Positions 13,595 through 46,464 of a stretch of DNA of 64,000 nt are shown here, in pieces; position 1 is the first letter of the stretch; each line of letters opens with the position of its first letter. The stretch is from a virus (lineage: Duplodnaviria > Caudoviricetes). The stretch lies in the IMG/VR virus record IMGVR_UViG_3300028907_000004, positions 1 through 64,000 of that record. The stretch is one strand, 5' to 3'. The notes beneath the pieces were generated by a model. It ran no database searches, was not told the DNA's origin, and saw only the letters and a program-made list of their open reading frames with translations. The position numbers and the translations under genes were made by a program.

Positions 13595-14002
13595 TTACGC
13601 CAGCGTCACTCCCAGTTCATCGAGAACGACCCACTTGGAACCAGCCGACACCAACGTCAGGATTTCACCCGCAGCGTTGAACGTGGCCGTAGTAGCCGCC
13701 GATCCCCCCACGACGTTGGTCAACGCCATCGTAACGGCGTTAGTACCCGTCGTGGAGGTCATTTCGATAACCAGAATCTGTCCGGCCCGTTTGGGGGCCG
13801 CCAGCGTGATCGCGTAAGTATCGGTTGCGGGGCCGACGATCTTGACGTGATTGGCGTCCCGATTTATTGCCCCGGCGGCTTTGAGTTCCTGGATATTACC
13901 CTCAAGGCCCAGGTGCGCCGCTTCGGAAAGGGTCACGCTTTCCTGGCGTTTGATGCCAGAAGCCGGTTCGACCCATGCCTCCACCCTTCGTACATCACTC
14001 AT
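13595..14002 (-). CDS. Virion structural protein (head decoration-like)
   Basis: Beta-rich Ala/Thr protein downstream of the capsid gene. Confidence 0.5.
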   Translation of the reverse strand: MSDVRRVEAWVEPASGIKRQESVTLSEAAHLGLEGNIQELKAAGAINRDANHVKIVGPATDTYAITLAAPKRAGQILVIEMTSTTGTNAVTMALTNVVGGSAATTATFNAAGEILTLVSAGSKWVVLDELGVTLA

Positions 14003-21561: not shown

Positions 21562-22008
21562 ATGACTGTTCGCCGTGTTTTCACTATCCTTAATTTCATC
21601 GAAGAGGCAATGAACGAAACCCTTCAACATGCAAGTTCCGCTAATCGGGCGAAGATCGCAAAGTCGCAGATGAAGGTGATTGCGTGGCTGGAAAAGGCGA
21701 GGGCAGCAACTCGTGAATTTCACGGGGATTATCAAGAAATTTTACCCACGCCCTATTTCCCGAAAGCCCCGAAGACGGAAACAACCATCATCAACGCAGC
21801 ACTGGCGTTGGCTGAAGATGTTTGGTTCTACATGCGGACGAAAAAGATGATGTGTACAAAGGAAATGAAGTCTGCGTGGAATCGTATGATTGCCGCCCTC
21901 GTTTCCCTGTTTTCCCACTATGACTCGGAGTGGGAAGACTGTGCGGGTCAAGTTACGGGCCTTGCGTTGGCCCGTAGAGCTTGGAACTCCGCCAGCAGGA
22001 GGCCCTGA
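21562..22008 (+). CDS. Hypothetical protein
   Basis: 148 aa, first of a coupled plus-strand run. Confidence 0.5.
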   Translation: MTVRRVFTILNFIEEAMNETLQHASSANRAKIAKSQMKVIAWLEKARAATREFHGDYQEILPTPYFPKAPKTETTIINAALALAEDVWFYMRTKKMMCTKEMKSAWNRMIAALVSLFSHYDSEWEDCAGQVTGLALARRAWNSASRRP

Positions 22009-22310
22009 TGCGACGTTCTATCAAAATCACGCTTCGCGCTTACGCCGTCTTGTGCGCGTTGTTCGCCCTTCTGGCCGTTACGTCTTTGTGTAAGGCAGAA
22101 ACCTTTGAATATAAGGTTACGGGAATCAACCTCAAAACGCAGGAACGTGTAGTGGGGCATATTACGGACTCTGCCCAAAACGGTACTGTGTCTGGTATGA
22201 TTTGGGATAGAATGGGCGTGTATCCCGTTGAAGGGATTTGGGCCGGGAAAGGCCGAATGCGTCTTTACAGCACATTGTCCTCATTTACCGTGGATGTGGT
22301 AGAAGAATGA
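22008..22310 (+). CDS. Hypothetical secreted protein
   Basis: Signal-peptide-like N-terminus (MRRSIKITLRAYAVLCALFALLAVTSLCKA). Confidence 0.5.
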   Translation: MRRSIKITLRAYAVLCALFALLAVTSLCKAETFEYKVTGINLKTQERVVGHITDSAQNGTVSGMIWDRMGVYPVEGIWAGKGRMRLYSTLSSFTVDVVEE

Positions 22311-22498
22311 GCTGGGGAGTTTTTGAAATCTACGGTACAGGGGGCATTATTGTAGAAATACACATAATCCCCTGTACCAGAGAAGGGAGAGTGTATAAAG
22401 GCCACGATATTTCCTGTTTTTGCGGCTGCTGCCCTACCGTAGACCCCGAAACAGAACCCGGAAAACCGCCGATTTTCCATCACCACCAACTACATTAG
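22307..22498 (+). CDS. Small Cys/His-rich protein
   Basis: HIIP...HDISCFCGCCP...HHHQLH. Confidence 0.5.
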   Translation: MSWGVFEIYGTGGIIVEIHIIPCTREGRVYKGHDISCFCGCCPTVDPETEPGKPPIFHHHQLH

Positions 22499-22506
22499 AG
22501 GCAGCT

Positions 22507-22716
22507 ATGGAATATCTACTTTCCCTGGGGACCGTATATGGGCTTCTATGTTTGTACGCTTTTTCGATGGAATCCTTGCGGCGTAGAAGTCCTTGGAAAT
22601 TCATAATCATTTTTTCCCTTATGTTTCCGGTCCTGTTAATCATTTATTCAATATCAGAGCTTCGACAGTATAAGAGGAGGAGGAGGAATGGGCTTAAACA
22701 AAACCAGAACCCCTAG
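22507..22716 (+). CDS. Small membrane protein
   Basis: Two hydrophobic stretches and a basic tail. Confidence 0.5.
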   Translation: MEYLLSLGTVYGLLCLYAFSMESLRRRSPWKFIIIFSLMFPVLLIIYSISELRQYKRRRRNGLKQNQNP

Positions 22717-22891
22717 CGACCCGGCCCCGGATTGGGTGGGTAAGACTTACGGGGCGCGTATCGTGGACTGTATCATTCAATTGACGTTATTCGAAATCAT
22801 TAGTGAGGATGAAGCAAAGCGGCTGTTCCTCCGTGTCGATAGATGGAGAGAAGAGGCCGAACAACGAGAGGGCAAATCAAATGTTACCTAG
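22688..22891 (+). CDS. Hypothetical protein
   Basis: GGAGG RBS; 67 aa. Confidence 0.45.
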   Translation: MGLNKTRTPSDPAPDWVGKTYGARIVDCIIQLTLFEIISEDEAKRLFLRVDRWREEAEQREGKSNVT

Positions 22892-22981
22892 AAACTTTGT
22901 AATTGGGCTGATGGTTGCGCTGGTACTCATAGTTGGTGCTGTTTGGTGTAACACATATTTTTGTATGAACTAGGGGGCACT

Positions 22982-23242
22982 ATGCAACATACCCCTAATA
23001 CCTATATGGGGCATAAAATCATCATAGACGAACGGTGTGACGTCTATGATGATGTTCCGATCCGCACCCATAGGAAAAAACGCCTTCGCAAGAAGTTCCT
23101 CAAGAAGTACGGAACGCGAAAAGTGCTGGTAGCTACCGACGCCTATATGACGAAAGGCGGGGCGATCATTATGAGCCCACATATGTATAACGAGCTTTGC
23201 AAATATACTACTTTAGTAAATCCGACAGGAGGGTTATTCTGA
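22982..23242 (+). CDS. Hypothetical protein
   Basis: Basic HRKKRLRKKFLKKYG motif. Confidence 0.5.
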   Translation: MQHTPNTYMGHKIIIDERCDVYDDVPIRTHRKKRLRKKFLKKYGTRKVLVATDAYMTKGGAIIMSPHMYNELCKYTTLVNPTGGLF

Positions 23243-23529
23243 TGTGGATTATTGATAACGACCTCATCAACGACGTCAGGGAAGAAGAAACAATCAATCG
23301 GGAAGGGGTCCATAGTTCTGATTTTGACCCGATTATGTTTATGGAGATGGAACGGGTTCCGTGGCGCGTAAAAGATGATGACGGCGAAATCTACTATGAA
23401 GGCCGCATGTCAAAAAAGCGTTTGGAAAGCGAAGCCGAACTGGCTTTTGGCCCTCTTGATTTCGCTATGGCTGATGCCGGGGCCACCACTATGGAATATC
23501 TCGAAAACGGGGAATGGGTTCAGTTATGA
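23242..23529 (+). CDS. Hypothetical acidic protein
   Basis: WRVKDDDGEIYYEG...PLDFAMADAG; coupled start/stop. Confidence 0.55.
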   Translation: MWIIDNDLINDVREEETINREGVHSSDFDPIMFMEMERVPWRVKDDDGEIYYEGRMSKKRLESEAELAFGPLDFAMADAGATTMEYLENGEWVQL

Positions 23530-23810
23530 GCGAAATTGCGAAGTGTCCGTTATGCGGTAAAGATGTTAAAAGGTCTATTTGGCGTCCAGAATATGAAGGC
23601 TGTGCTGGTAGCGTAGTAGTCACTGTAAAGTGCTGCGGAATGGAAGCATTAACTGTCGAACTTTGGAACCAGTACGCTGCTGCGATGGATTACGCAAAGA
23701 AAACTGCTTACTGGTTCAGCCTCCCTGACAGCATCCCTCATTCAGATGACGCACGCGCAGAAAAAGCAATGGAGAATGCTGAAACTCGCGTCTTGGAGGT
23801 ATTCCTATGA
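23526..23810 (+). CDS. Zn-ribbon hypothetical protein
   Basis: KCPLCGK...KCCG. Confidence 0.5.
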   Translation: MSEIAKCPLCGKDVKRSIWRPEYEGCAGSVVVTVKCCGMEALTVELWNQYAAAMDYAKKTAYWFSLPDSIPHSDDARAEKAMENAETRVLEVFL

Positions 23811-24067
23811 GCGATAAGAAACAGCCCCCTCTCAAAGTGGTTCCCCTCCATGAATCGAATTATCGAGACATAGTGGCTGCTCTTCGGCTTGTAGCCGATC
23901 AAATCGAAAGGGGCGAGTTTGGTCAGGTAAATGATTGCGCGATGGTTCTACAGGGGCCGACTTTCGAAATCTTTCATATGGGTGCCGGTAATGCAGAAAC
24001 CGCCCATCTACTTTTTGCGTGCGCGCAACGTAAATTTGAATTGGCAGTACTTGATCATTATGAATAG
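23807..24067 (+). CDS. Hypothetical protein
   Basis: 86 aa, coupled to the upstream ORF. Confidence 0.5.
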   Translation: MSDKKQPPLKVVPLHESNYRDIVAALRLVADQIERGEFGQVNDCAMVLQGPTFEIFHMGAGNAETAHLLFACAQRKFELAVLDHYE

Positions 24068-24077
24068 GAACATTGCC

Positions 24078-24248
24078 ATGAGTAAGAACGAACTTCTTGA
24101 CGATCTTACTTTTGTTGAAGTCTTTGATCCAGTTTACAAGTATCAAAGGAAAATACCGTTGAAATGGGAAGTCGGGCAAATTGAAATTCCTGAACCTTCC
24201 CCGGAACATAACGGCTATGGCGTGGTAACAGAACACGATCTTGACTAA
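24078..24248 (+). CDS. Hypothetical protein
   Basis: 56 aa from ATG 24078. Confidence 0.4.
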   Translation: MSKNELLDDLTFVEVFDPVYKYQRKIPLKWEVGQIEIPEPSPEHNGYGVVTEHDLD

Positions 24249-24261
24249 AGGAGTATCATTT

Positions 24262-24594
24262 ATGAATCAGAAACTACAACAGGCCCTCATCCGCCTTCTG
24301 GGGCGCAAATTCCTCATCGTAGCCGGTATGCTGGCATCAACGCACTGGCTTATGAACTACAGCCGTATTGATGCCAATACCTATATGTATGTCATACTGG
24401 GAACAGTAGCCGCCTACATCACCGGTAACGTCACCCAGAACATCAAGCTCTCCTCTTCCTCCCAATCAGAATCTCTTCAAATCAAGAACACCGTTGGCGA
24501 TGTATCTTCTACAACTACCGTTTCCCTCTCTCCCGACGAAGTAGACGCCATCGTAAGCCAAATCAAATACACCCTAGGTAAACGCAATTCCTAA
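24262..24594 (+). CDS. Holin-like membrane protein
   Basis: LLGRKFLIVAG...YVILGTVAAYITGNV; two TM segments and a polar tail. Confidence 0.45.
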   Translation: MNQKLQQALIRLLGRKFLIVAGMLASTHWLMNYSRIDANTYMYVILGTVAAYITGNVTQNIKLSSSSQSESLQIKNTVGDVSSTTTVSLSPDEVDAIVSQIKYTLGKRNS

Positions 24595-24664: not shown

Positions 24665-25708
24665 CTAAAAATACCCATATTTCCTTCATCGTCCCATAAC
24701 AAATCAAATCATATCGAAATCCGCTAAAAATAAGAAATTCTTTTCTACTGGACTTCTACATAACTTCAATCTACTTTTACCGCCTACGAGAAGAAGAAAA
24801 AATACCATTTTATCATGTCTTACTCGTTCCATAAATCATAAAGAAAGAAAAACATTATTTCGAAAACGAAAAACACCCCAAAATATATCCCAATAACTGC
24901 TTATTTTTGCCTACCCCTTTTCGTATACAGGGGTGGGTTGGTACTTATTTTTCATTTACTATGGACCACCCACCAAGTACCTTATTTCCATATCCAAAAT
25001 ACCGACAAAATATCGTCAGGTGGGGAGTTATTTACGTTTTCATATGTGGGACAACCCAAGTATCATTGTTTGGTATTCGTTTTATTGGCTCGGAGTTCAG
25101 AGGTGGGGGTCCCGCCGGAGGGGGGTGGGGGCTCATTGGTGTGTGGGGTGGGGGTGTGGCCAGCGCCATGCGTAGGGGGTCCAGGAAGCGTGCGGCGAGA
25201 GCTTTTGGCGTATGGTATGGCTCATGATACCGATGCCGGAGAATGCCAAAGACGTGGCGTAAATGGCGTGTGCCTAGGTTTGGCTAGGACGTTGGTTGTG
25301 GGTCCTCCATGGCGTATGGTATGGAGTTTGAGGTCGGGCATCATACGCCATCAGATACGTGGGCAGAATGGGGTCCGAATTATCCCGTGGGCCGTGGGGT
25401 CCGTTTGGAGTGGAGGGTGGATGGCCGCCCCCTCCAACCCCGATACCACAGACCCCCGATCTGAAACGGACCCCGCCAAGAAGGGGGTCCGACTTCCTCT
25501 GCCCCCTACGAAGTCCACCTGCCTTCCTACCATCTATCCATAATCATTCCTTGTAGCCATAAGGGGGTCACGCCTTCCTTCCTCGGAGGTCCGGGTCATA
25601 TCCCTTCTTGCTAGTCATTATCATTCCTACTATGGGGCCATGGGCAAAAAGAAGGGGTCCGACACACCCTTGCCGGACCCCGTAGGACTATGGAAAAATG
25701 GTCTACGT

Positions 25709-25796
25709 CTACGTGATGGCGTAAAGCGCCAGAATGATGAATATCTGCGTGGCTAGGAAGGCCAGCTGGGCGAAGCGTTGGATGGATATGTTCATG
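25709..25796 (-). CDS. Small membrane peptide
   Basis: AAGGAG RBS; MNISIQRFAQLAFLATQIFIILALYAIT. Confidence 0.45.
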
Positions 25797-25820
25797 GTGT
25801 TCTCCTTGGCAAATACGTGG

Positions 25821-26252
25821 CTAATATACGGTGAGGCCCGATTCCAGATTGTAACTGGCGTCATACGGGGTGACGGTATCGCGCTGGATGTACGCTTCCG
25901 CAGACGTTTCCGGACCCGCTTCACGGACCTTCCGTTTGGCGTAAAGCAAAGCATCTCTGCAGTTGGTAAAAGATACGGGGTCCGACTTTACTACACCGCC
26001 TTTCTGGCCATAGTACGTGATAACTACCACGTAGGGCACCGCCTTCTTGTGCGGCTTGATAGTAGGTGCCGTGAAATAGTCTGCTATGATATTTGATTCC
26101 ATTTGCGAAAGAAGGGGGCACCGAGCAACTTCTATGGAAAATGCGAAGCAAAGACGCTTCCGGACTTCCCTATTATAGTCCTTGACCTGGGGGTTGACCA
26201 AAGTAAAGGAAGCGTTGATGAGAGAAGTGGTGTTAGAGTAGATGGCTTTCAT
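25821..26252 (-). CDS. Early-region hypothetical protein
   Basis: 143 aa with a GGAG RBS. Confidence 0.55.
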   Translation of the reverse strand: MKAIYSNTTSLINASFTLVNPQVKDYNREVRKRLCFAFSIEVARCPLLSQMESNIIADYFTAPTIKPHKKAVPYVVVITYYGQKGGVVKSDPVSFTNCRDALLYAKRKVREAGPETSAEAYIQRDTVTPYDASYNLESGLTVY

Positions 26253-26285
26253 GGTTTTTTTTTCTCCCGTAGTATGGATGGTTGG

Positions 26286-26690
26286 TTACAAAAAAACGGT
26301 CTCTGCCTTGTTGCTTTCCAATCTATGGGCAAAAAGCTCCATAGTGTGAGCGTCAAAGTAGAAAGAACCCACCAACGCTCCATTAGATCCACCGTTTACC
26401 AGGGTCCATGAAAGGTGGACGGCCACGCCAAACTCCATACGGTCGTTGTTCTTGAGTGCGTTATAGATCGTGCCCGTCAAGCAGACTTCCTTGAATATGG
26501 AGCGGAAAAGAGAAGGAAGGGGAAGCGGGGTGGACTTGAAGACCATATTCTTGACCTTTCCCCACCCCGCTTCCTCCACAGAGAAGTCAATACCGTGCCC
26601 GTGAAGCGTCTCTGCGGAGAAGTCCGGACCTAATGCGTAGGGAAGAATGGCGGCCAGGTATCTGTATTCAGCGGGGGTCTGTGTAGTCAT
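26286..26690 (-). CDS. Early-region hypothetical protein
   Basis: AAGGAG RBS before ATG 26690. Confidence 0.55.
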   Translation of the reverse strand: MTTQTPAEYRYLAAILPYALGPDFSAETLHGHGIDFSVEEAGWGKVKNMVFKSTPLPLPSLFRSIFKEVCLTGTIYNALKNNDRMEFGVAVHLSWTLVNGGSNGALVGSFYFDAHTMELFAHRLESNKAETVFL

Positions 26691-26716
26691 GATTTTTCTC
26701 CTTGGTTTTGTGTAGT

Positions 26717-27007
26717 TTAGTAGGCGGTGCGGTACGTGGCGTGAAGGTCCCAAAGGTGGTTCGCTTCTTCCTCTTCAAGCGTGATCTGCCAATCGGGGTC
26801 CGTGACTTCCGTTTGCGTCCCATCGGGGTCCGTGCGGCGCAGGTAGTTTGGACGGGGGTCATTCACGTCAAAGGCGGTGCGCTTCCGGACGGTATAAAGC
26901 ACCATGCCGGTGGTGGGGTCCGTGATACCAAAAAGCGTGAAACGGAAGCGTCTGTCTGATGTTTCGTAGGTCCGCAGGATGGTGATGGTGGAGGCGTCTA
27001 TTTCCAT
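26717..27007 (-). CDS. Early-region hypothetical protein
   Basis: AAGGAG RBS; three TDP tripeptides encoded by the repeat octamer. Confidence 0.6.
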   Translation of the reverse strand: MEIDASTITILRTYETSDRRFRFTLFGITDPTTGMVLYTVRKRTAFDVNDPRPNYLRRTDPDGTQTEVTDPDWQITLEEEEANHLWDLHATYRTAY

Positions 27008-27057
27008 GATTTTTGCTCCTTGGGGTCCGGACCTTCCCCGGACCCCGTTTGGGTGTG

Positions 27058-27621
27058 CTAGTTGATTTGACCCGCTTCGCGCAGAGCGTCTATAAGGTCC
27101 GCCAACCTTCCCCGATGGCCGTCATGCTCCAGACCGGGGGTGTGAAGCACGCGCAAGAATTCTTGAAGGTCCGCCACGTAGGCGGTCAAGGCGGCATGGT
27201 TTTCCTGATACTTTGCGATGGCCTCTGCGGTCTCTACGGCGTGTTCCCGCATCATCTGCTCCTCCACCGCCTTCTCTGCCGTTTCGATGCCTGCGATGAA
27301 GGTCCGCTGCGATACGATGTGGGACTTGAGCATATCTATGGCGGTGGAGAGTTCAACCCAGCCCACCCGCTTCTTGCTCGTGAGTTTATAGAAAGCGTCC
27401 GTTTCGTAGGAAGCAAACGTGCCGTATGCGATGATGGCCCCGGACTTACACCGACCGTCCTTGGCCATATCCGAAATAATCTGGTCATTCGCACGCTTGG
27501 TAGCAACCAAGCCATTCGGATTCAAGAGGTGAAAATGAGCCTTCTCCCAATTAGACCATCCGGAAGCGGGGGCAGTAGCCGTCCGTGTAACCATTTCCCA
27601 TCTGGATTCGTACTTGCTCAT
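27058..27621 (-). CDS. Early-region hypothetical protein
   Basis: AAGGAG RBS; coiled-coil C-terminus. Confidence 0.6.
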   Translation of the reverse strand: MSKYESRWEMVTRTATAPASGWSNWEKAHFHLLNPNGLVATKRANDQIISDMAKDGRCKSGAIIAYGTFASYETDAFYKLTSKKRVGWVELSTAIDMLKSHIVSQRTFIAGIETAEKAVEEQMMREHAVETAEAIAKYQENHAALTAYVADLQEFLRVLHTPGLEHDGHRGRLADLIDALREAGQIN

Positions 27622-28080
27622 GATTTGCTCCTTGAACCCCCTTTCGGGGTCCGGTATCGGTGTGTGTTATGGGTCCCTTTTAAGGGACTTCCACAAAGAA
27701 AGGCAAGTGGAAATATAGGTATAGAACCAAAAAGTCCAAAATAATTCCACTTGATTTTTCTATAGGTATGATTGAAAAATATCATAGATATTTTGGAAAA
27801 AACTGGATATTTGCGCTTGACTTTTTTGATCAAACGCGCTCGCCAACAGAAATGGCCAAATCCGCAAATAGGACCACCCAGGCATATCATACCCCTATTT
27901 TCATCATAGAACCACTTTAGGCATCATCACTTTCTAGCCACAGAAATGGACTTTTCCGGCATTTTGGCTTTTTTCGAGCTTTTTTGATCATAGAGAAAAA
28001 TTGCCAGAAAAGCACAAATAGGCGGCAAATACGGCATGTGAAGATTTGCCTTTTTTCATGGGTCATAGTAACTGAAAAAA

Positions 28081-28950
28081 GAAAAAACGCAGAATCATTT
28101 CGGACTAGGGAAGTCCGAATGGGAGGTGTATCAGACCAGAAAGGTCCGAATGAAAATTCATACGGCAGGGGTCCGAATTATGATATCAGACCAGAAAGGT
28201 CCGAATCATGAAAGCGGACTTCCCTAGTCCGGATTGAAAACCATACTGCGGGGGTCCGGTATCGCGGCCATTTCGTACTAGGGAAGTCCGAAAGCAGACA
28301 CCATGCTGCAGGACGGTGCCCGTGTGTAAATACCGGAAGGGACCCCCGGAAGCGGACGGTGACGGACGCTGCAGCATGCTGCAGGACGGTGTCGGGGTCC
28401 GTCCGCTTCCGGACCTTCCGGACAGCACGGTGTCGGACGGTGTCGGACCCCCGGAAGCGGACCCCGTAGGACCCAGGACCCCTGGCCACGCTGGGTCCGG
28501 AAGGGGTCTGCCGGAAGGCCACATACACTGGAAGTCTGCCCCCTTGGTGCCGGAAGGCCACAAACGCCATCACCCGCGCCAAGGACCCACCGGAAGGCCA
28601 CATACACCACAGGTCTGCAGGCATTCGGACTTCCCTAATCCGAAAAGCACCAAAAGCCATAGGGAATGAGGGGAAAAGCACCAATTTTCCCCATAGCCAA
28701 TTTTCCTACACATTTTTATAGGTGCCACACCACGTAAAGGGCACCGACAAAAAGAAGGGGTCCGCTTTCCCTACGGGGTCCGCTTCATTTCCACCCTACG
28801 TCAAATCATTCGCAACCTAGTCCGCTTCCGGACCTTTCGGACACCCCCGCTTTCCTACGTCAAATCATAGACCAAAAAGAAGGGGTCCGAACCCTTCCCA
28901 CGGCCAGACCCCTTTATTGTTTCCATACTATTGGGCAACCTAGTCCGAAA
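28081..28950. repeat. Non-coding cluster of direct and inverted repeats
   Basis: TATCAGACCAGAAAGGTCCGAAT x2; CGGACTAGGGAAGTCCG and its inverse; CCGGAAGGCCACA x3; CATGCTGCAGGACGGTG x2; AAAAGAAGGGGTCCG x2 here plus one at 25647. Confidence 0.85.
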
Positions 28951-29236
28951 GCTCCATAACACAATCCCATTCTCCATATGCCTTTGACGCACCGTAATGC
29001 GGGTGGTTGTGTATATAGTCCAAAGAGGAATGTACAGCAAGGAAGTCCGCCACCTGAAGGCCAGTAAGTCCCGCCGCTTTGTATTCCATCACTTTTTCCT
29101 CTGCCTTTCGGCCAAGGTCCTCCACTGTTTTGGCCACAGTATAGTTCAAAAGCGCACGGACTTCTCCGGCAGTTATGGCCATTCGCTCATCGGATTCCAT
29201 CAAACGCAGACGTTCATACAACTCTTTTACGGTCAT
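28940..29236 (-). CDS. Early-region hypothetical protein
   Basis: GGAGG RBS before ATG 29236. Confidence 0.5.
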   Translation of the reverse strand: MTVKELYERLRLMESDERMAITAGEVRALLNYTVAKTVEDLGRKAEEKVMEYKAAGLTGLQVADFLAVHSSLDYIHNHPHYGASKAYGEWDCVMELSD

Positions 29237-29282
29237 TTTTCTTCCTCCATTCAAATAATCAAACAAAATATAATGGGGTCCG

Positions 29283-29519
29283 TCACGTTTGTAGTGGCCT
29301 GTTATAGTGCTGGACAGCCTTGTTATACAACTTGTATGCGTGGTCTATGCGCTTTGCCGTACCAAATAGAGTTTGGAAAGCGGGTGACCGGAAGGCATAC
29401 ACCCGATACACGCCACCGTCATAGACTAGGTTGATCACCACGCCGTCCAGACTATTCGGAAGCGCAGTGCTGATGCCCAATCCTGCTTTGAATTCGGAAG
29501 GTCCCAGTGGGTATCGCAT
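29283..29519 (-). CDS. Early-region hypothetical protein
   Basis: 78 aa with a GGAG RBS. Confidence 0.5.
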   Translation of the reverse strand: MRYPLGPSEFKAGLGISTALPNSLDGVVINLVYDGGVYRVYAFRSPAFQTLFGTAKRIDHAYKLYNKAVQHYNRPLQT

Positions 29520-29522
29520 AAT

Positions 29523-29828
29523 TCACTCCACACGGTCAAATATCTTGATAGGATGGGAGAAGGGGAAGCGTGAGTCACTACTGTACAGGAAGTTGCCCCC
29601 AAACATATAATGCCGTCCGCTTCCATAGTCCGATGGCGCTGCTATGTAATCCCTGAATTGCGGACGGAAATGGAGGTGTAACACGCTTTCCCTTCCTTCC
29701 GTTTCGAACACAGGGGGCACGTTTGTCCCCACAAGAATGACGGCGTGGTACCGCGAAGACACCCCGCCATTCGTACAATCGCCCATATTGCTGGGCCGAT
29801 ACACTGTACATAAAAGTCCTGTGGCCAT
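29523..29828 (-). CDS. Conserved phage early protein (DCTNGGVSS type)
   Basis: GDCTNGGVSSR...YMFGGNFLYSSDSRF...PIKIFDRVE pattern; function unknown. Confidence 0.65.
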   Translation of the reverse strand: MATGLLCTVYRPSNMGDCTNGGVSSRYHAVILVGTNVPPVFETEGRESVLHLHFRPQFRDYIAAPSDYGSGRHYMFGGNFLYSSDSRFPFSHPIKIFDRVE

Positions 29829-29829
29829 A

Positions 29830-30018
29830 CTACACCCCCGATATAGGTTGGAGTTCATTTTCTTCTACAGCGTACCAAGGCGCATCGTGCGGAGTTATGT
29901 GGTAACATGGACCCCTTTGCTCCATAACACAGTCCACTATGGTTCGCACCCCATTATCACGTCCATAACTATTGACCCAGTGGACTTTCTGGCCTGGTTT
30001 GTACTTGAAAGTGCCCAT
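29830..30018 (-). CDS. Small SH3-like hypothetical protein
   Basis: FKYKPGQKVHW...EENEL. Confidence 0.5.
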   Translation of the reverse strand: MGTFKYKPGQKVHWVNSYGRDNGVRTIVDCVMEQRGPCYHITPHDAPWYAVEENELQPISGV

Positions 30019-30019
30019 A

Positions 30020-30397
30020 TCATTCTCCATAACTTGCTGGAATAGGTTCACCCGATATATCGCAGAACAGCATATCATCTTCGTAGTTAATGTCCACGGC
30101 CACAATACGGTTCAATGTTTTTCTTTTAACATTGTCCAATTGCGTCTTCAGGTCCGACAAACAGCCTTTAAAAGACACGGCATAGCCATCATTGGTCACG
30201 AAGTACATCTGGTATCCACCCGGCCAGGCATACTCGCCAGCGCGCAACGTGGCCTTCAGGTCTGCCGTAGTGTTGATGGTACGGTGTGTTTGTTTATAGT
30301 TATGGCGCAGGGGTGCGCGGGTGCTCCAACTAGGGGTCCGGGTATCGTACAAGCCCCCATCGCTTTCGCTGATAAAAAAGTGCTCCGGAAGGTTCAT
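30020..30397 (-). CDS. Conserved phage early protein (AWPGGY type)
   Basis: LRAGEYAWPGGYQMYFVTNDG...INYEDDMLFCDISGEPI. Confidence 0.65.
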   Translation of the reverse strand: MNLPEHFFISESDGGLYDTRTPSWSTRAPLRHNYKQTHRTINTTADLKATLRAGEYAWPGGYQMYFVTNDGYAVSFKGCLSDLKTQLDNVKRKTLNRIVAVDINYEDDMLFCDISGEPIPASYGE

Positions 30398-30399
30398 GA

Positions 30400-30627
30400 C
30401 TACACCGCCTTGTTTACTATGGTTGAAATTTCACGTTCAAGAAAAAGGGCATACTCAACCCCTTCCAGGAACACCCCACTATCGCGCTGCCACTTCCTGG
30501 CCTTCCGGATTGCTCTTTCTGTTACGTTGAACCTTCCGGACACCGGCCACAAGTGCGAGGTATCCGTTTGCCGGAAGCGGGCATTTATCTGGCGTTTGGT
30601 CATACTGTTCCAGGGGCTGCTTACCAT
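30400..30627 (-). CDS. Early-region hypothetical protein
   Basis: AAGGAG RBS; 75 aa. Confidence 0.5.
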   Translation of the reverse strand: MVSSPWNSMTKRQINARFRQTDTSHLWPVSGRFNVTERAIRKARKWQRDSGVFLEGVEYALFLEREISTIVNKAV

Positions 30628-30642
30628 GTATGTCTCCTTGGC

Positions 30643-30939
30643 TCAATAGCCATCATCGTAGTCATCCGGATACATTCCGCCAGACACGGGGTCATTTTCG
30701 TCCGGAAGGTGGGCCGTGCTTGCCTGGGGCGCCAGCGCTTTGCTAGTCCAATTTTCTGCCGCTTCCGGATATTCGGCCAACGCTGCTTCCTCTGTTTCAA
30801 AATTGTCCAGGAAGCAAGTCACCGTTTGCCCCGCCAACACGCTGTCCGGCGGCATTTCCTTGAAGCCAACTACGTCCACCCCGCCATACTTTCCCTGGCG
30901 CAGGGAAAGCCACAAATACTCTTGGTCATTACTAGGCAT
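30643..30939 (-). CDS. Small acidic early protein
   Basis: AAGGAG RBS; first gene after the promoter at 30980-31008; D/E-rich. Confidence 0.55.
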   Translation of the reverse strand: MPSNDQEYLWLSLRQGKYGGVDVVGFKEMPPDSVLAGQTVTCFLDNFETEEAALAEYPEAAENWTSKALAPQASTAHLPDENDPVSGGMYPDDYDDGY

Positions 30940-30979
30940 TGTCTTTCTCCTTGGTTTATTTTCCGACTCACATGCCTTT

Positions 30980-31008
30980 TATATACGTCTGACCCTGTGA
31001 GAAGTCAA
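30980..31008 (-). promoter_or_regulatory. sigma70-type early promoter
   Basis: TTGACT-17 bp-TATATA. Confidence 0.75.
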
Positions 31009-31033
31009 GGACTTTTCTTGATATCTTCTATTT

Positions 31034-31258
31034 TTATTTGATACCGGACGATGGGCGGAAGGTCCCTTTATCAAAATACATCGAGTTGCGGACCCCTTGT
31101 TTCACTGGCTTTTTGCGGTACAGCTCCCAGTGGCTTCCGGCATCGCGGACCCCATAGTTGGACATAGTGTCTCCCAAGAATTTCATGTTGTTTCTGCTGA
31201 AGAAAAGGCCATTAGGGTGCGCGCTTTCATACTGGCGCTTGAGCTCATATGGGGTCAT
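31034..31258 (-). CDS. Conserved phage early protein
   Basis: GLFFSRNNMKFLGDT motif. Confidence 0.6.
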   Translation of the reverse strand: MTPYELKRQYESAHPNGLFFSRNNMKFLGDTMSNYGVRDAGSHWELYRKKPVKQGVRNSMYFDKGTFRPSSGIK

Positions 31259-31281
31259 GATATTCCACTCCTTGCGTTTGC

Positions 31282-31983
31282 CTATGCGGCAGTTTTGACC
31301 ATTACGGGGCACAGCCTACTCAATGAATTGGTGAGGTGCTGTAGCATACTATCCATTTCCTCTGCGGCCCAACTCTGCCCAACAATACCCCACACTGATT
31401 CTCCAGGTCCCTCATCGTATATTACACCATCATCATCGCATTCGGGGTCCGTGTGGTCGATGTGATACGTGCCCACTTCTACGCCAAATACATCCCCATT
31501 CAAATACGATATGTATTCATCTATTTCCAGTTCCATGTATCTGCGTGCCTTCCGGTACGCTGCCGGACCTTTGCCCCATTCCTTCTTTATTGTCTCCGGA
31601 GACATGTAGAAAATGGCGTCGTGTGCCCATTCTACTGGGCTGGCGAAGTCCCCAAGCACGCAAGCGTCCGGATCAATAGGAATGACGAGGAAGCCAAGTT
31701 GGCGCGCAGTAGCCACAAGGACTTCGATGTCAGAGAAGTCCCTGAATGCCTTGCTGTCTTCGTCTTCCCAACCTGCCCGGAAGCGGGGGTGACGTCGGAC
31801 TTCCGTCAAAAGATTGTACCTGCTGGCGTGCTTGTCCGTGTGAACGTCGGTACGGGGTCCCAGACCCAAAAGCGTAGTCGCGCAATCCATCATCGTCCGT
31901 GGGTTGGTCGGCCAGGGGTCACGAACAACCTTGCCGTACACTCCACCCTCAAACACGGTCATTACGGTATTGCGATCAGACAT
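31282..31983 (-). CDS. Early-region hypothetical protein
   Basis: 233 aa; EIDEYISYLNGDVFG...ESVWGIVG. Confidence 0.65.
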   Translation of the reverse strand: MSDRNTVMTVFEGGVYGKVVRDPWPTNPRTMMDCATTLLGLGPRTDVHTDKHASRYNLLTEVRRHPRFRAGWEDEDSKAFRDFSDIEVLVATARQLGFLVIPIDPDACVLGDFASPVEWAHDAIFYMSPETIKKEWGKGPAAYRKARRYMELEIDEYISYLNGDVFGVEVGTYHIDHTDPECDDDGVIYDEGPGESVWGIVGQSWAAEEMDSMLQHLTNSLSRLCPVMVKTAA

Positions 31984-32308
31984 GGCCATTCTCCTTGTTA
32001 GTTTGGGCCGATTTATGGCCGCAGGGGGTCTCATTGAACATCAGGGCAAAAAGGGGTCTGCCATTGGATTTGAGCTGGACTTCGATGATGGGCCATTCGT
32101 CTGATACCTTGACCCTGCCCTTGCTCCACTGGGACAGCTGTTCCATTTTCCGGAGAAGGGACAGAACACGGCGGGGGGTGATGTCGTCTTCGCCAAAGAC
32201 GATGTCCCGCTCAACGATGTAGGACGCATTCCACGTCCAACACCCTTCTTCCTTCCAGGCATCAATAGACACCAGGTCCGCTTTGAAAAATCGTGCTTCC
32301 TTTGCCAT
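31976..32308 (-). CDS. Early-region hypothetical protein
   Basis: SIDAWKEEGCWTWNASY...WPIIEVQLKSNGRPLFAL. Confidence 0.6.
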   Translation of the reverse strand: MAKEARFFKADLVSIDAWKEEGCWTWNASYIVERDIVFGEDDITPRRVLSLLRKMEQLSQWSKGRVKVSDEWPIIEVQLKSNGRPLFALMFNETPCGHKSAQTNKENGHV

Positions 32309-32366
32309 GACGTCTACTCCTTGACGGGGGTCCGGAAGGTCCGGACCCCCTGTGTTGTGTTCCGAC

Positions 32367-32972
32367 TTACTTGGCACCGGCCACCGCCTTGGCCTTCTTG
32401 ACGTCGGGGAAAGTGGACTTGATCAGCGCGGTGGTGTACTGGTAAACCGTGCGTGCGATGGTGCCCGCCTTCTCTCCGGTGTACTCTGCGATTTCACGGC
32501 TGATGGGCCAAGTGAAGGCAGACGCCAAGTGGCTGCGATTGACCTTTTGGCCTTGCGGGGTCCGTGCGGCCAAATCGGCATACGCTTCCTTGCCCTTCCG
32601 CTTGACGTCCAGCGCCACAGCGCACTGGCCGCACAGATACTTTCCCCGTCTCTTGAGCTCTGCGCCGGCACCACACTTCTCGCACTGGTGGGCTTCCTGC
32701 GCGGGGGTGACGGGGTCCGCTTCCTTCTTTGCTGCCGCCTTGGGCTTGCCTTCCTTCTTGGTCGGTGCGGGGGTGACGACTTCCTGCACGGGCGTGGGCT
32801 CCAGTGCGAGCAGGACAACTTCCGCATCGACGTGGGTGTCACCGAAATGATCGGTCAGTGCGGCACGCTGGGTGGCCAGGTTGGCTTCCTCGGGCACGTC
32901 CACCTTGTAGTGGTTGATCATGGCGGTGGCCTGGGACTTGTTAACACGGTTCAGATTCACGGACTTGGACAT
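32367..32972 (-). CDS. Early-region protein with Zn-finger
   Basis: AAGGAG RBS; CEKCG...LCGQC; high-GC3 codons. Confidence 0.6.
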   Translation of the reverse strand: MSKSVNLNRVNKSQATAMINHYKVDVPEEANLATQRAALTDHFGDTHVDAEVVLLALEPTPVQEVVTPAPTKKEGKPKAAAKKEADPVTPAQEAHQCEKCGAGAELKRRGKYLCGQCAVALDVKRKGKEAYADLAARTPQGQKVNRSHLASAFTWPISREIAEYTGEKAGTIARTVYQYTTALIKSTFPDVKKAKAVAGAK

Positions 32973-33034
32973 GGCTTGCTCCTTGGGTTGGTGGTTGGTT
33001 TTTGTTTTCTTCCTTCTTCGTCTCACTTGCCCTT

Positions 33035-33063
33035 TTTATAGGGGTTTGTGCCGGAGAAGTCAA
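33035..33063 (-). promoter_or_regulatory. sigma70-type early promoter
   Basis: TTGACT-17 bp-TATAAA. Confidence 0.8.
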
Positions 33064-33094
33064 GGACTTTTCTTGATATCTTGAAAATTATTTT

Positions 33095-33229
33095 TTACAG
33101 GGCAAATCCGACTACCACGAAAAGTGCGATCAAAATCAAATACAGGGCCAGGACAAAAGGGCCATCTTCGTCAAGAAACGGTCCGGACTTGCGGCGAAGT
33201 CCTACGGTGCCTTGGTAAAGCGTGCTCAT
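33095..33229 (-). CDS. Small membrane peptide
   Basis: C-terminal FVLALYLILIALFVVVGFAL. Confidence 0.45.
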   Translation of the reverse strand: MSTLYQGTVGLRRKSGPFLDEDGPFVLALYLILIALFVVVGFAL

Positions 33230-33230
33230 G

Positions 33231-33485
33231 CTAGTAGCCCCGCCGCATGCCGGCAATCTTGCCTTCCGGAGTGATGGTGATGTCCTTGAGGTACCCACCG
33301 CGAATGCGGACCCAATCACCCGATTCGGTGCGGACTTCATACCGGATGGACCTGGCCTGAATCTTGAGGCGGTACTGCCTGCCCCCTTCTTCCTTCTTCA
33401 GGTTGCCATATCGGTCACGAGTGTGCCCACGACCTTCAGCCCAAGCGTAAATTTCACGGACCTTTTTTTCATTCTTGGTGCTCAT
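33231..33485 (-). CDS. Early-region hypothetical protein
   Basis: AAGGAG RBS; first gene after the promoter at 33529-33557. Confidence 0.6.
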   Translation of the reverse strand: MSTKNEKKVREIYAWAEGRGHTRDRYGNLKKEEGGRQYRLKIQARSIRYEVRTESGDWVRIRGGYLKDITITPEGKIAGMRRGY

Positions 33486-33528
33486 AGTCTTACTCCTTGA
33501 AGGTTGTTTTCTTGATCCAGATGCCCTT

Positions 33529-33557
33529 TTTATAGGTATGAATTGGGGAAAAGTCAA
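33529..33557 (-). promoter_or_regulatory. sigma70-type early promoter
   Basis: TTGACT-17 bp-TATAAA. Confidence 0.8.
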
Positions 33558-34808
33558 GGACTTTTTTGGACTTCCCCAAAAATAAATTTACTTTTTCCAC
33601 TTTTTTCTTTCGGCATCATTTCCGGCATCATAAAAAAGGCGCATACCTTTATCCAAGAAAAGTCCTAGCATGCGGGATTGCCCACTTTCTGCGCGTTGAT
33701 TTTTGGGTCATATTGGAGCGAACCAGCAAAAGCTCCAAAAGTATCCGGATACAGGAATGCCCCACCGTGGTCAATTTTTGGCCCTTCCTGCCGGAGACCA
33801 AATTTCACCAGGGTGTAGCTGGTTGCCGGACCCCTTCCGGACCCCTATATTGTGACGGAAGGGGTCCGGACCCCGTAGGACTTCCGGACCCCCGCTTGTG
33901 CGGCTTGTGTTTGTAAGTCCTAGTAGGTCCGGAAACGGACCCCGCTCATTGACACGCCACCGGACCTTCCGGACCCCCTGGGCCACGCCCACGCAAGCTC
34001 CAGACCCCGCACATGAGTGGGACCCCTGGTGGCGTGGGCGTGGGACCCCGCCACCTATCAGTAATGATTATGGTTAGCGGCGCAGGGTCCAGGAAAATTC
34101 CATCCCCCACCATTTCCCACAATTCCAACCCTACCTACAAATTCTAGTAGCACCCACAGAACTCTAAAGCACCACACAACAAAAGACCCTACACCACCCT
34201 ATAGCACGCAAACAGGAATCGGGACAACCCGGACCCTGTGAAACGCCCCTTTGCCGTAAATACGGCCAATATGTCCAATAAATCCGCCTTTCTTCGCCCC
34301 TGCTATAGACATCATAAATGCTACCTATAGGGTTTACCTATAGGACATTTCCGGCGTTCCGCTTAATCCTTGCCTATAGAATAGCCATCATTGCGCCGCT
34401 AGTGGACAAATGACGCACCCGAATCCCTAGAACGCCGAAAGGGTTGTTCCGAATCTCCGGCACGTGTACGGTGGCAAATTTTCGATTTTCCGTTTTCGAC
34501 TCTCCGGCCCTTTACTGTGTCGGCCCTTTCGGTCTATATTTCGCCTTCCTTCGCGCACACCCTTTCATACTATCTGACCGCGCAGACCCTTTCCAGCCCG
34601 CTTTTCCGGGCTTTTTCTTGTCGTTTTCTAGGGGTTTCCACAAAATTATTTTCAGAATATAGGAGAATTTTTACACACACTTAAAAAATCAAACAAAAAT
34701 AAATGACATCCGGCAACTATTAGGGCCACTAAAAACACTTGACTTCTTTTGAAAAGTCCGTACCTATTGAGTCACGTTGATTGTAAACAACCCAAGGAGG
34801 AAACGTCT

Positions 34809-35417
34809 ATGCCTAGAAACACCCGCCCCGGATCAAAAACCGTAGACCCTACCGGATCAACCGCCTTCAAGCGTTACGAGTTGTACATTCACGCCGCTGT
34901 TCGGTCCTTCAATCACACTACCGGGATTGATAAGGACGAACTCTATGGGGCGGCACGCGAAATCTACGCACGTGCCCTCAAGTTCTACAAGCCGCAATCC
35001 GGCAAGCCCTTCGGGTGCCTCCTGTCTACTATGCTCAAACTTGAGCTCATCAACTTCTGCGATCAGTACCGCCGTCAGTTCAATCGAAACATCAAAGATA
35101 CAGACCAGCGCATGTTTGTAAACATCGACTGGTGTTCTGCCGAAGCCGGGGATGAAGAGAATTTCCCCGAAAACATGGCCTATATCAGTCAAGAAGATTT
35201 AGGGTTTAGAGAGGTGGAGTTTAATGAGAAACTCCAACAACTCTCCGAAGCCGCGCAACGACTTGTAAAAGATTTAATGGGAGCCACCACAGAGCCTACC
35301 CGTCGGAACGGGCCGGAAGATGTGGCCAGATTCGCCAAGAAATATCTTGGCTGGAAGCTGAAAGACGCCAGGAAAGCCGCAATAGAAATCAACACTATGT
35401 TATTCGTGGAAGGTTAG
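34809..35417 (+). CDS. Sigma70-family-like phage transcription factor
   Basis: AAGGAGG RBS; region-2-like IDKDELYGAAREIYARALKFYKPQSGKPFGCLL; helical C-terminus. Confidence 0.6.
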   Translation: MPRNTRPGSKTVDPTGSTAFKRYELYIHAAVRSFNHTTGIDKDELYGAAREIYARALKFYKPQSGKPFGCLLSTMLKLELINFCDQYRRQFNRNIKDTDQRMFVNIDWCSAEAGDEENFPENMAYISQEDLGFREVEFNEKLQQLSEAAQRLVKDLMGATTEPTRRNGPEDVARFAKKYLGWKLKDARKAAIEINTMLFVEG

Positions 35418-43504: not shown

Positions 43505-43777
43505 CGTCTTATGGTGACGCTGATACTCCTGGCCGAATGGTTACCCACTCCCCGTAACCTTCGGCTGGGAACCCCCACCCGGAAAACGGGCACGAAGCCC
43601 GCAACGACTACCGCACCGCAGAGGCCGGTGGCTGGTCTGGGGAGAGATAACGACAGAACGCCCTGTGAACGGCGTAATTGGAAAGCGCGGCCCCAGCCGT
43701 CCCGCCTACCATAACGGGACCACGCAACATCCGGGCCCAACCCGCCCCCGGCCAGCTTCGGGGGCGGGTTTCTTTTT
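43503..43777 (+). ncRNA. Candidate structured RNA/leader ending in a terminator
   Basis: At least 7 hairpins in a 275-nt intergenic gap (see findings). Confidence 0.45.
43739..43777 (+). terminator. Rho-independent terminator
   Basis: Perfect 12-bp stem AACCCGCCCCCG/CGGGGGCGGGTT plus TCTTTTT. Confidence 0.8.
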
Positions 43778-43796
43778 CAGAAAAAGAGAGGTTGTT

Positions 43797-44879
43797 ATGA
43801 AAAGACTCAAGACCCCGTTGACCATTCGTGGGGATTGCTTGTACTGCCCGCTTTCTCTTTCCCTCGACACCTACTGGAACTGTCTTTGTGACTGTTTGCA
43901 TTGCTACCTTCGCCGCTTGAATAGGACTTGGGGAACGGACCTGCGCCCCGTAGAGCACGAGCTTGTGGAAAGAATCCTCACCAACGGTCTGAAGAACAAG
44001 AACCCCAAGACGCCGCTTGCGCACGCCCTAGCCGCCAAGAAGACGCTTCGCTTTGGAAACAAAGCCGATCCCTTTCAACCCGCTGAAAGAATCTACCTTG
44101 TAAGCGCAGAAGCCCTTCGCGCACTCAAAAAACTCCAATGGTCCTTCGTAATCCAGACCATGGTTACTGACGTTATGATGGACTACGAGCGCATCATAAT
44201 GAATTGTCGGGACTTCGCTTGGATTCAGCCTATTATCAGCCCCGGCATGGAAAAGGACTGGGAAGTTCTGGAGCGTAAGCGCACGACAAACCCGATCCAA
44301 CGCCTAGAGCATCTTGTTGCCTTGAAGAAGCAGGGCATGCGCGTAGCTGTAAATGGTGAGCCCTTTATTCCCGGCTTCCATACGGTTCAGGATTTTGAAG
44401 ATACATGTAAACTTCTCCGGTCCTACGGCATCCGAAGATACAACACCTATAACTTTCACTTCAACGATCATGTGGCCAAGAATATGCACGAAGCTGGCAT
44501 AGACATCCGGGCCATTTACGAAAACAACCAAGACGGGCCTTGGAAGAAAATACTCGTCCAGTTGTTAGATATTGCCAAGAAATACGACATTCTGTTGGGC
44601 TGTCCGGACTTTGTGAATACAGGCCCGCAATATCGGGAAATGGCCAATACCTGCTGCGGCGTAGACGTTTCCAACCCAATGACCTTCAATACGCATACAT
44701 GGAAACGTATGATCCAAGACGGGGTTCCCCTTGAGGAAATCTACGAGTCCACCAAAGACGGCGTAGGGGATGAGGAAGAGGGCCGCAAAGTGCTGTTTGG
44801 GGAAGGTCCGCAAGGAATCTATACGATGGAAGATGCCGGACTTGTAAAGAAGGGTAAAGTTCTGGACACCAAGGAGTAG
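43797..44879 (+). CDS. Radical SAM enzyme, SPL-like (1)
   Basis: CLCDCLHC (CxxxCxxC); GNKADPFQPAE; NGEPFIPG. Confidence 0.85.
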   Translation: MKRLKTPLTIRGDCLYCPLSLSLDTYWNCLCDCLHCYLRRLNRTWGTDLRPVEHELVERILTNGLKNKNPKTPLAHALAAKKTLRFGNKADPFQPAERIYLVSAEALRALKKLQWSFVIQTMVTDVMMDYERIIMNCRDFAWIQPIISPGMEKDWEVLERKRTTNPIQRLEHLVALKKQGMRVAVNGEPFIPGFHTVQDFEDTCKLLRSYGIRRYNTYNFHFNDHVAKNMHEAGIDIRAIYENNQDGPWKKILVQLLDIAKKYDILLGCPDFVNTGPQYREMANTCCGVDVSNPMTFNTHTWKRMIQDGVPLEEIYESTKDGVGDEEEGRKVLFGEGPQGIYTMEDAGLVKKGKVLDTKE

Positions 44880-44881
44880 CC

Positions 44882-45748: not shown

Positions 45749-45779
45749 TCTGTAAATATCCTCGTAGGAGGACAAAAAT

Positions 45780-46454: not shown

Positions 46455-46464
46455 TGGAGAGACA

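Follow-up and report, generated by a model that had tools for sequence, protein, structure and literature searches.

The early small-gene region of an uncultured tailed phage carries a dense field of one short word, which appears to derive from a single palindromic hairpin. The sequence analysed here (the window) comprises 64,000 nucleotides, the first 64 kb of one 78,463-bp contig (IMG/VR record IMGVR_UViG_3300028907_000004), and contains 37 exact copies of the octamer GGGGTCCG between positions 25370 and 33977. The reading favoured here, held tentatively and at somewhat less than even confidence, is that the octamer belongs to a family of dispersed stem-loops, similar to the promoter-early stem-loops (PeSLs) of T4-type phages, which punctuates the early transcripts and spreads by short-patch copying. 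According to this reading, GGGGTCCG would be the arm of a lineage-specific GC-rich palindromic stem-loop with the consensus GGGGGTCCGGA-AGG-TCCGGACCCCC, whole elements and fragments of which would be strewn across the early region of this phage group, which is hyperplastic and full of ORFans. Terminators, hairpins between genes and microhomologies for recombination would then all come from one palindromic hairpin, whose fragments would invade open reading frames (ORFs), where they dictate peptides. Early ORFan regions are where host-takeover and anti-defence genes are kept and where evolution is fastest, and the field shows one concrete way in which such a region can be organised.

Octamer enrichment in the early region

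The window holds 41 exact copies of GGGGTCCG, against 3.3 expected from whole-window dinucleotide shuffles (maximum 11), and 37 of these fall within the field, 23 on the plus strand and 14 on the minus strand. Outside the field there are four copies in the window (351, 19014, 39373 and 50295) and one in the further 14 kb of the contig, which amounts to five in about 70 kb. Since dinucleotide-preserving shuffles of the field alone give 0.55 +/- 0.73 copies, with a maximum of 4, local composition cannot explain the excess. An earlier note on this DNA, made from the sequence alone, had counted the same 37 copies with the same division between strands and had expected fewer than one by chance; the count is exactly reproduced and the expectation is about 0.5 even in the field's own shuffles, and only the 'couple' of copies that it reported elsewhere was an undercount. 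It had also named local composition and duplication as possible sources of the enrichment. The shuffles rule out the former, and the latter does contribute, as part of the octamer count stems from duplicated longer units that share 13-19 nt, above a column-shuffle null.

The enrichment extends into coding sequence. Ten octamer copies lie inside confident minus-strand ORFs, where 0.79 are expected after synonymous-codon shuffling and 0.27 after codon-order shuffling, and none of 1000 shuffles reaches ten. These copies occupy frames 0 and 1 in both orientations and encode xDP, RTP and GVR in six unrelated proteins, in agreement with the earlier proposal that they impose peptides. Taken together, the use of several frames, an excess that survives codon shuffling and the matching pattern in relatives bear out the suggestion of selection or drive at the nucleic-acid level. 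The field also overlaps, as had been proposed, with leftward small-gene operons under host-type promoters: three near-identical sigma70-type promoters, P1, P2 and P3 (Table 1), drive these early operons, and in all three the word AAGTCC adjoins the -35 element.

In addition, TCGA, CGAG, CGAC, ACGA and GAAC/GTTC are 2-4-fold rarer in the field (here taken as 25300-34100) than in the remaining genome, and the oligonucleotide signature of the field therefore differs beyond the octamer.

A single palindromic hairpin that contains the enriched words

The octamer forms the outer arm of a 25-nt palindromic hairpin, GGGGGTCCGGA-AGG-TCCGGACCCCC, of which a perfect copy (the master hairpin) is found at 32326-32350. 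Other words are enriched along with it when the field is compared with the rest of the genome: GGTCCG (60 vs 39), GGTCCGGA (17 vs 2), TCCGGA (30 vs 47), CCGGAAG, the complement of CTTCCGG (28 vs 30), and AAGGTCC (17 vs 7). The same words lead a scan of the early ORFs against synonymous shuffles, and the enriched words, AGGTCC included, are substrings of the 25-nt hairpin or of its CTTC-loop variant. An inverted partner with at most one mismatch is present within 90 nt of 24 of the 37 copies, at spacings that range from overlapping up to 42 nt; the 13 unpaired copies are mostly those in ORFs. The predicted hairpins fold well below shuffled controls: z values lie between -2.0 and -3.1 for the window and between -2.8 and -4.3 for relatives. 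Two or three of them are followed by U-tracts and three lie directly 5' of a ribosome-binding site (RBS). The ability of opposite-orientation copies to fold is thus the best-supported claim of the earlier note, backed by this pairing, by predicted terminators and stop-to-RBS hairpins, and by one compensatory change across lineages in the master hairpin.

The positions of the copies follow the gene layout. Seven of the 37 lie in the array upstream of P1 (33827-33977), five in hairpins between a stop codon and an AAGGAG RBS (32327/32342, 27022/27039 and 27646) and one immediately after a stop codon (29275). Five more are found in terminator-like elements, in which the 3' arm is followed by TTCTTTTTG (25654/25674, 28757/28775 and 28882), five in the non-coding repeat region, four in a structured tail past the last terminator (25370-25491) and the remaining ten in ORFs. 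A 17-nt unit, CGGACCCC-TTCTTTTTG, recurs at 28748, at 28873 and in the 25645-25681 terminator, and hairpins with T-runs are predicted, as consensus matches only, at 25654-25681 and 28877-28899. The master hairpin has a z value of -3.1, and its counterparts in relatives reach -2.8 and -4.3.

In the favoured reading, the inverted non-coding pairs would fold in the leftward early transcripts. Some of the folded pairs, those with a U-tract after the stem, would act as intrinsic terminators, and others would form hairpins placed between a stop codon and the next Shine-Dalgarno sequence. With such terminators and stop-to-Shine-Dalgarno hairpins, early transcription would be punctuated, and the ends and stability of the mRNAs would probably be set in this way.

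Two non-coding stretches show further structure. The repeat-rich stretch at 27622-28939 contains operator-like dyads of the form TTCGGACT-N5-AGTCCGAA, four near-perfect and two looser. They lie in a non-coding element of about 550 bp (28096-28645) bounded by 24-nt inverted repeats, whose sequence suggests a control region with several operators or some other platform for protein binding. In the P1-upstream array, the single plus-strand copy at 33861 overlaps the minus-strand copy at 33867, which produces a perfect palindrome, GGGGTCCGGACCCC (33861-33874), and degenerate GGGGTCC copies extend the array to about 34050. Four lineages share a well-conserved non-coding block (33600-33835, minus strand) between the array and P1. 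Of the 49 pairs that RNAalifold predicts in it, 14 still pair after two-sided changes, and the block could be a structured leader or a small RNA. Upstream of this block there is a promoter-like site at 34141-34168 (TTTAGA, 16-nt spacer, TAGAAT), which is weaker than P1 to P3 and is a consensus match only.

Conservation and turnover in related phages

Relatives were recovered from metagenomes by a pattern scan and protein look-up. They represent three further lineages, colinear with the window and about 72-90% identical to it in nucleotide sequence, namely L129 (also G001, a 75,457-bp contig), L131, and L132/L133, which are one phage found in two samples. With four lineages in total, the window included, tests of conservation and covariation have low power. 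The scan of viral contigs for the hairpin pattern gave at least 119 loci, nearly all of them chance matches in GC-rich contigs, and among the matches listed only one, L100, was a true relative.

The motif field that the earlier note had proposed to look for in related phages is present in all three further lineages. The words GGTCCG, CTTCCGG and TCCGGA cluster in the early small-gene region of each lineage, and in the early ORFs of three lineages they stand 3-8-fold above the synonymous-shuffle expectation, with no excess of these words in the replication and structural ORFs of the window or in the replication-side ORFs of L129. Exact octamer copies vary widely in number, from 37 in the window to at least 19 in the partial L133, at least 11 in the partial L131 and 7 in L129, a 75-80% identical relative whose 20.7-kb locus spans the complete field. 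L129 favours (C/A)(G/A)GGTCCGG instead. The core GGTCCG(G) is constant between lineages and the flanks are lineage-specific; in L133 alone the P3 spacer contains GGGGTCCGGG.

Some hairpins are kept across lineages, and individual sites turn over. The master hairpin occupies the same stop-to-RBS position in all four lineages, with a loop of 2 or 3 nt, and shows a compensatory change, GGGGG/CCCCC vs GGGTG/CACCC. The hairpin at 27022 is retained in L129, and so is the structure of the operon-end terminator, despite an altered 3' arm. Octamer sites are not conserved above their surroundings, with core identities of 0.69, 0.74 and 0.85 vs 0.78, 0.85 and 0.88 for the flanks. Orientation is also variable: in the window, solo copies downstream of promoters are biased 18:4 and orientation flips near 33850, whereas L133 is balanced and L129 has the opposite lean.

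A more distant case comes from the conserved 201-aa zinc-ribbon protein, whose own gene carries two motif copies and which is the sole candidate for a nucleic-acid binder among the products of the field. No family or fold match for it was obtained from PHROG, Pfam, a fold search, an Atlas search or a profile search of 1.8 billion proteins. The profile search gave one distant homologue, on L135 (Logan ERR3345665 contig, 4377 bp, 46% GC), which has early promoters of the same type as the window phage. In L135 there is no excess of GGTCCG; instead GCCCGG/CCGGGC is present in 15 copies, often as GGCCCGGGCC, and 11 of them are in ORFs, where 2.6 are expected (0 of 500 shuffles). Since the palindromes GGTCCGGACC of the window and GGCCCGGGCC of L135 differ by one symmetric base change, the phenomenon recurs with an altered word.

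Signs of copying and recombination between copies

The flanks of the octamers are shared more often than their base composition by column would predict. Pairs of copies with at least 6 extra flanking nt in common number 18 vs 1.5 expected, and pairs with at least 7 number 11 vs 0.5 expected, under the column-shuffle null. The copies form subfamilies sharing 13-19 nt, among them caaaaagaa-GGGGTCCG, agtcctac-GGGGTCCG, GGGGTCCG-gaaggtccgg and GGGGTCCG-gtatcg, as well as a 15-nt identity between 26825 and 32557, which lie in two unrelated genes and in different frames. These shared extended flanks point, at the level of sequence, to copying over independent site creation. Comparison of the lineages shows clustered changes at single sites: at 26825-26832, CGGACCCC in the window corresponds to CCGATGCC in L129 and L131, three clustered substitutions within about 60 nt that are otherwise identical, and the nine positions at 32557 include four or five that are different in L131 and L133.

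Recombination between copies has left one trace. L131 lacks 3.3 kb that the other lineages have, and the joint lies exactly within CCGGACCCC, which is common to the copy at 30333 and to the hairpin arm at 27022. Since the motif plays no part in another indel joint, found in L133, this deletion is one clean case and not a rule.

It is proposed that the family is renewed by short-patch templated copying or by recombination among its own copies. Such copying would explain the subfamilies, the lineage flavours, the runs of the GGGTCC hexamer and the fragments of 8-15 nt seeded into ORFs, and the copies would also offer microhomologies for the gain and loss of gene cassettes. In L129, the counterpart of the non-coding repeat region (13628-13842) contains tandem GGGTCC runs, for instance three head-to-tail units at 13672-13689, and these suggest slippage as one route by which the word multiplies.

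Weighing the explanations

Several findings sit uneasily with a family of stem-loops that spreads by copying. The hairpins of the field nearly all share one stem, and those elsewhere in the genome have unrelated stems. The 3-8-fold coding excess in the early ORFs of three lineages, which replication and structural ORFs do not share, is joined by the same coding excess in the distant L135 with another word, GCCCGG, and neutral copies that land in ORFs should mostly be purged. Furthermore, the array from 33827 to 34050 is upstream of the three clear promoters, so that it would be transcribed only if the site at 34141-34168 is real. Nothing weakens a purely structural reading more than this over-representation in ORFs, which also gives a reader of the word its strongest argument. 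A factor that reads the density in ORFs would make it an address label of a new kind, one for a whole region; without such a factor, the field would be a clear natural case of concerted evolution, with templated copying of very short viral repeats.

A dedicated sequence-specific factor, from the phage or from the host, that reads the GGTCCGG core on early DNA or RNA is a possible explanation, albeit a rather doubtful one. Through the density of its sites, this factor would mark, silence, protect or process DNA or mRNA of the early region, for instance during early shut-off, in the manner of stoperators extended into ORFs. Such a factor would account for an enrichment found only in the sigma70-driven early units and absent from the adjoining small-gene cluster, for a coding excess in every lineage tested, and for a core that stays constant as the flanks vary by lineage. 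The half-site GTCCG is also present within the operator-like 8-N5-8 dyads, AAGTCC abuts the -35 element of the early promoters, and L135 pairs the one-base-different GGCCCGG with a homologue of the zinc-ribbon protein; stoperator motifs of Cluster A mycobacteriophages likewise vary slightly between related phages (PMC6550527). On the other hand, no binder was identified, the sole candidate has neither a family nor a fold match, and the sites are not conserved beyond their flanks. Inverted copies range from overlapping to 42 nt apart, which is unsuited to a fixed dimer, no second element stands at a fixed distance from the word, the 18:4 orientation bias of solo copies is absent or reversed in relatives, and the shared extended flanks favour copying. 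The dense protein-binding array envisaged in the earlier note hence keeps its nucleic-acid-level signal and loses ground on the binder and on site conservation, and the fixed orientation to transcription that is the hallmark of stoperator-like silencing is not common to the relatives. A narrower version, which seems unlikely, is that the reader co-evolves with the word (GGTCCGG here, GGCCCGG distantly) and marks the early region, ORFs included, for the timing of shut-off or for shielding; this reader may be the zinc-ribbon early protein or a leader RNA with tandem GGGGUCCG seeds. If true, lytic phages would have a previously undescribed system for addressing their early region.

The remaining explanations are far weaker. 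That no function is linked to the word, and the field results from a compositional accident or from early genes of foreign origin, is hardly credible: the field does have its own oligonucleotide signature and is mosaic, but neither its dinucleotide shuffles nor codon shuffles ever reach the observed counts and the feature persists in four lineages, so that this reading is largely refuted. It is improbable that the words are a by-product of modification or repair, such as a methylation-linked bias of the very-short-patch type or a need for certain thymine contexts in a hypermodified genome. The phage encodes a candidate base-hypermodification cluster (two radical-SAM-like genes and a PLP enzyme, described below), the field is depleted in TCGA, CGA words and GAAC, and the enriched words resemble methyltransferase targets (GGWCC, TCCGGA, CCGG). 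Yet a mutational bias should affect the whole genome, and the words are not in excess in the replication or structural ORFs. None of the scanned proteins was found to be a methyltransferase, and the hairpin architecture would be left unexplained. A Chi-like signal for host RecBCD/AddAB, clustered near the genome end and protecting or recombining the injected linear DNA, appears very improbable. Chi is an octamer that arises by point mutation, in any frame, and is terminally clustered in some phages (PMC12315714); the field resembles known Chi phages in word length, indifference to frame and regional clustering (PMC12315714), and its orientation flips near 33850. Nevertheless, Chi arrays have a strong co-orientation, with ratios of 20:3 for LLS and 32:0 for MD8 (PMC12315714), compared with 23:14 here and with relatives that are balanced or opposite. 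A Chi word is fixed by the host, yet the octamer falls to 7 copies in a 75-80% identical relative and changes in L135. The surveyed lambdoid phages with their own recombination module are mostly without Chi sites (PMC12315714), and the window phage encodes a RecA-like protein and a flap endonuclease (FEN). The density is also about 8 times that of LLS (23 Chi sites; the LLS genome size is assumed to be lambda-like).

A few other candidates were tried and rejected. A promoter element is not consistent with copies on both strands in ORFs, with the lack of a phage RNA polymerase gene among the large ORFs scanned or with the absence of a fixed-distance partner; in the test for a bipartite promoter, no flanking column exceeded 0.5 bit within 45 nt on either side. 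An N4-type hairpin promoter, suggested by the 3-nt loop, was discarded as there is no gene of the size of a virion RNA polymerase. An origin or iteron array would be too long at 8.6 kb and the replication module is elsewhere, and a polar array diverging from about 33850 has a polarity that the relatives do not have in common. Finally, pairing of CGGACCCC sites with the GGGGUCCG seeds of a leader RNA would suit the strand bias of the window but neither L129 nor L133.

Genomic context of the field

PHROG and Pfam scans of the window proteins identify the phage as a siphovirus. The minus strand of the first 21.7 kb encodes terminase, portal, scaffold, major capsid, tape-measure and tail genes, and the plus strand from 34.8 kb carries a large replication module with an SNF2-type helicase, a primase, a DnaB-like helicase, a protein similar to single-stranded DNA-binding protein, PolA, an intein-bearing clamp loader, the RecA-like protein, FEN and a ligase, together with two radical-SAM-like genes and a pyridoxal-phosphate (PLP) enzyme. 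Two small-gene blocks separate the structural and replication modules (Table 1). No close cultured phage was found; the top matches have amino-acid identities of 59% for the major capsid protein (MCP) and 61% for the large terminase subunit (TerL; MW202621). In a comparison by MCP and TerL with phages of Microcystis, Caulobacter and Pseudomonas, the nearest cultured relatives, the amino-acid identity is at most 59% (MCP) or 37% (TerL). A megablast search of the field against 50,697 phage records gave no match. MW202621 was dropped as a relative of the field because its architecture differs, and the relatives obtained from a helicase-based locus search were 31-32% identical and lacked the field.

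The early region is mosaic, with a gene content that varies between relatives. Eight of ten field ORFs scanned are without a PHROG match and nine of ten proteins scanned are without a Pfam match, and ARAGORN and Rfam detect nothing credible within the field.

Table 1. Location of the octamer field and of associated features in the window
Feature	Position	Strand	Description
Motif field	25370-33977		37 GGGGTCCG, about 60 GGTCCG, 30 TCCGGA, 28 CTTCCGG
Small-gene cluster	21562-24594	+	Neighbours the field; no octamer copies
Small-ORF block	about 33600 down to about 25700	-	Contains the octamer field
Early promoter P1	33529-33557	-	AAAAGTCC-TTGACT, 17-nt spacer, TATAAA
Early promoter P2	33035-33063	-	Cassette as P1
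Early promoter P3	30980-31008	-	Cassette as P1
P1-upstream array	33827-33977	-	7 copies: 6 minus, 1 plus (33861)
Master hairpin	32326-32350	-	11-bp stem, 3-nt loop; between stop of ORF 32367-32972 and AAGGAG RBS of ORF 31976-32308
Second stop-to-RBS hairpin	27022-27046	-	Inverted motif pair; also one arm of the L131 deletion joint
Small hairpin	27634-27653	-	Motif GGGG pairs with local CCCC, just 5' of the RBS of ORF 27058-27621; read by eye
Intrinsic-terminator-like hairpin	25645-25681	-	Inverted pair followed by TTCTTTTTG, at leftward operon end; z -2.8
Terminator-like elements	28748-28905	-	End in CGGACCCC-TTCTTTTTG
Non-coding repeat-rich stretch	27622-28939		1.3 kb, nine motif copies, several direct-repeat families
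96-aa ORF	26717-27007	-	Three in-frame copies: TDP, TDPD, TDPD
Coding copy	30333-30340	+	Codon 20 of ORF 30020-30397; other arm of the L131 deletion joint
201-aa early protein	32367-32972	-	CxxC...CxxC zinc ribbon, Lys-rich linker, three long helices

Some features outside the field are of separate interest. The first gene of the rightward operon (34809-35417, plus strand) encodes a 202-aa protein with no Pfam or PHROG match, for which all of the roughly 50 top listed Foldseek matches are sigma factors, at weak scores (E 0.04-0.6). In VIA-align comparisons of its model, residues 20-90 or so resemble sigma region 2 (Z 7.2-7.7, root-mean-square deviation 1.6-2.4 A over 66-71 residues) and residues from about 135 to 202 resemble sigma region 4 (Z 5.2-5.5), with a low pLDDT of 59. 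The modelled product looks like a divergent two-domain sigma factor and, if real, it would allow the phage to redirect the host RNA polymerase after the sigma70-driven early phase. The divergent intergenic region at 34198-34379 holds six of the nine CTATAGG heptamers of the window, including two CCTATAGG palindromes. In the replication module, the clamp-loader-like AAA+ protein (DNA_pol3_delta2; 56005-58068, plus strand) is split by an intein with matches to Intein_splicing and Hint_2, and at 43665-47901 (plus strand) the PLP-dependent enzyme lies between the two radical-SAM-like genes, of the SplB/photolyase type, as a candidate DNA base-hypermodification cluster.

Comparison with known systems

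Hyper-abundant short GC-rich palindromes are known from cells, where REP/BIME hairpins are found at gene ends and cyanobacterial HIP1 is found within genes in all frames. REP/BIME and HIP1 are genome-wide, whereas the field is restricted to 8.6 kb of a phage genome and its word changes between lineages.

Among phage systems, the stoperators of Cluster A mycobacteriophages mostly point one way relative to transcription and serve as binding sites for the immunity repressor of these temperate phages (PMC6550527, PMC9283540). Like them, the field consists of dozens of short asymmetric words within transcription units, with variants between related phages; unlike them, it lacks a conserved orientation, includes ten copies in ORFs and many hairpin pairs, and is limited to the early region. 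No repressor or integrase was found among the proteins of the window phage that were scanned. The Chi arrays of LLS, P1 and MD8 (Zheng et al. 2025, PMC12315714) are likewise formed by an octamer far above chance, in any frame and in a regional manner, and the field differs from them in that its copies are not co-oriented, its word shifts between relatives and recombination genes are present.

The closest parallel appears to be the PeSLs, in which sigma70 promoters are combined with stem-loops of G/C-tracts in T4-type phages (Arbiol et al. 2010, PMC2839356). PeSLs sit in hyperplastic ORFan regions and mediate modular shuffling (PMC2839356; Comeau et al. 2014, PMC4122927). In both cases regulatory repeats occupy a hyperplastic region of small non-essential ORFans, strong sigma70-like early promoters occur together with G-tract/C-tract stem-loops, which act as terminators in PeSLs and of which some are predicted terminators in the present phage, and recombination between copies yields indels, as in the 3.3-kb deletion of L131; PeSLs also exchange cassettes. 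The two differ in that promoter and stem-loop are mostly separate in the field, none of the three window promoters carrying a hairpin, and in that the repeat unit is a single defined palindrome. Moreover, fragments of this palindrome are enriched inside coding sequence, which is undescribed for PeSLs, and the genome that carries the repeats is that of an unrelated 78-kb siphovirus, as opposed to a T4-type phage. The stem-loop reading would carry the PeSL idea past the T4-type phages.

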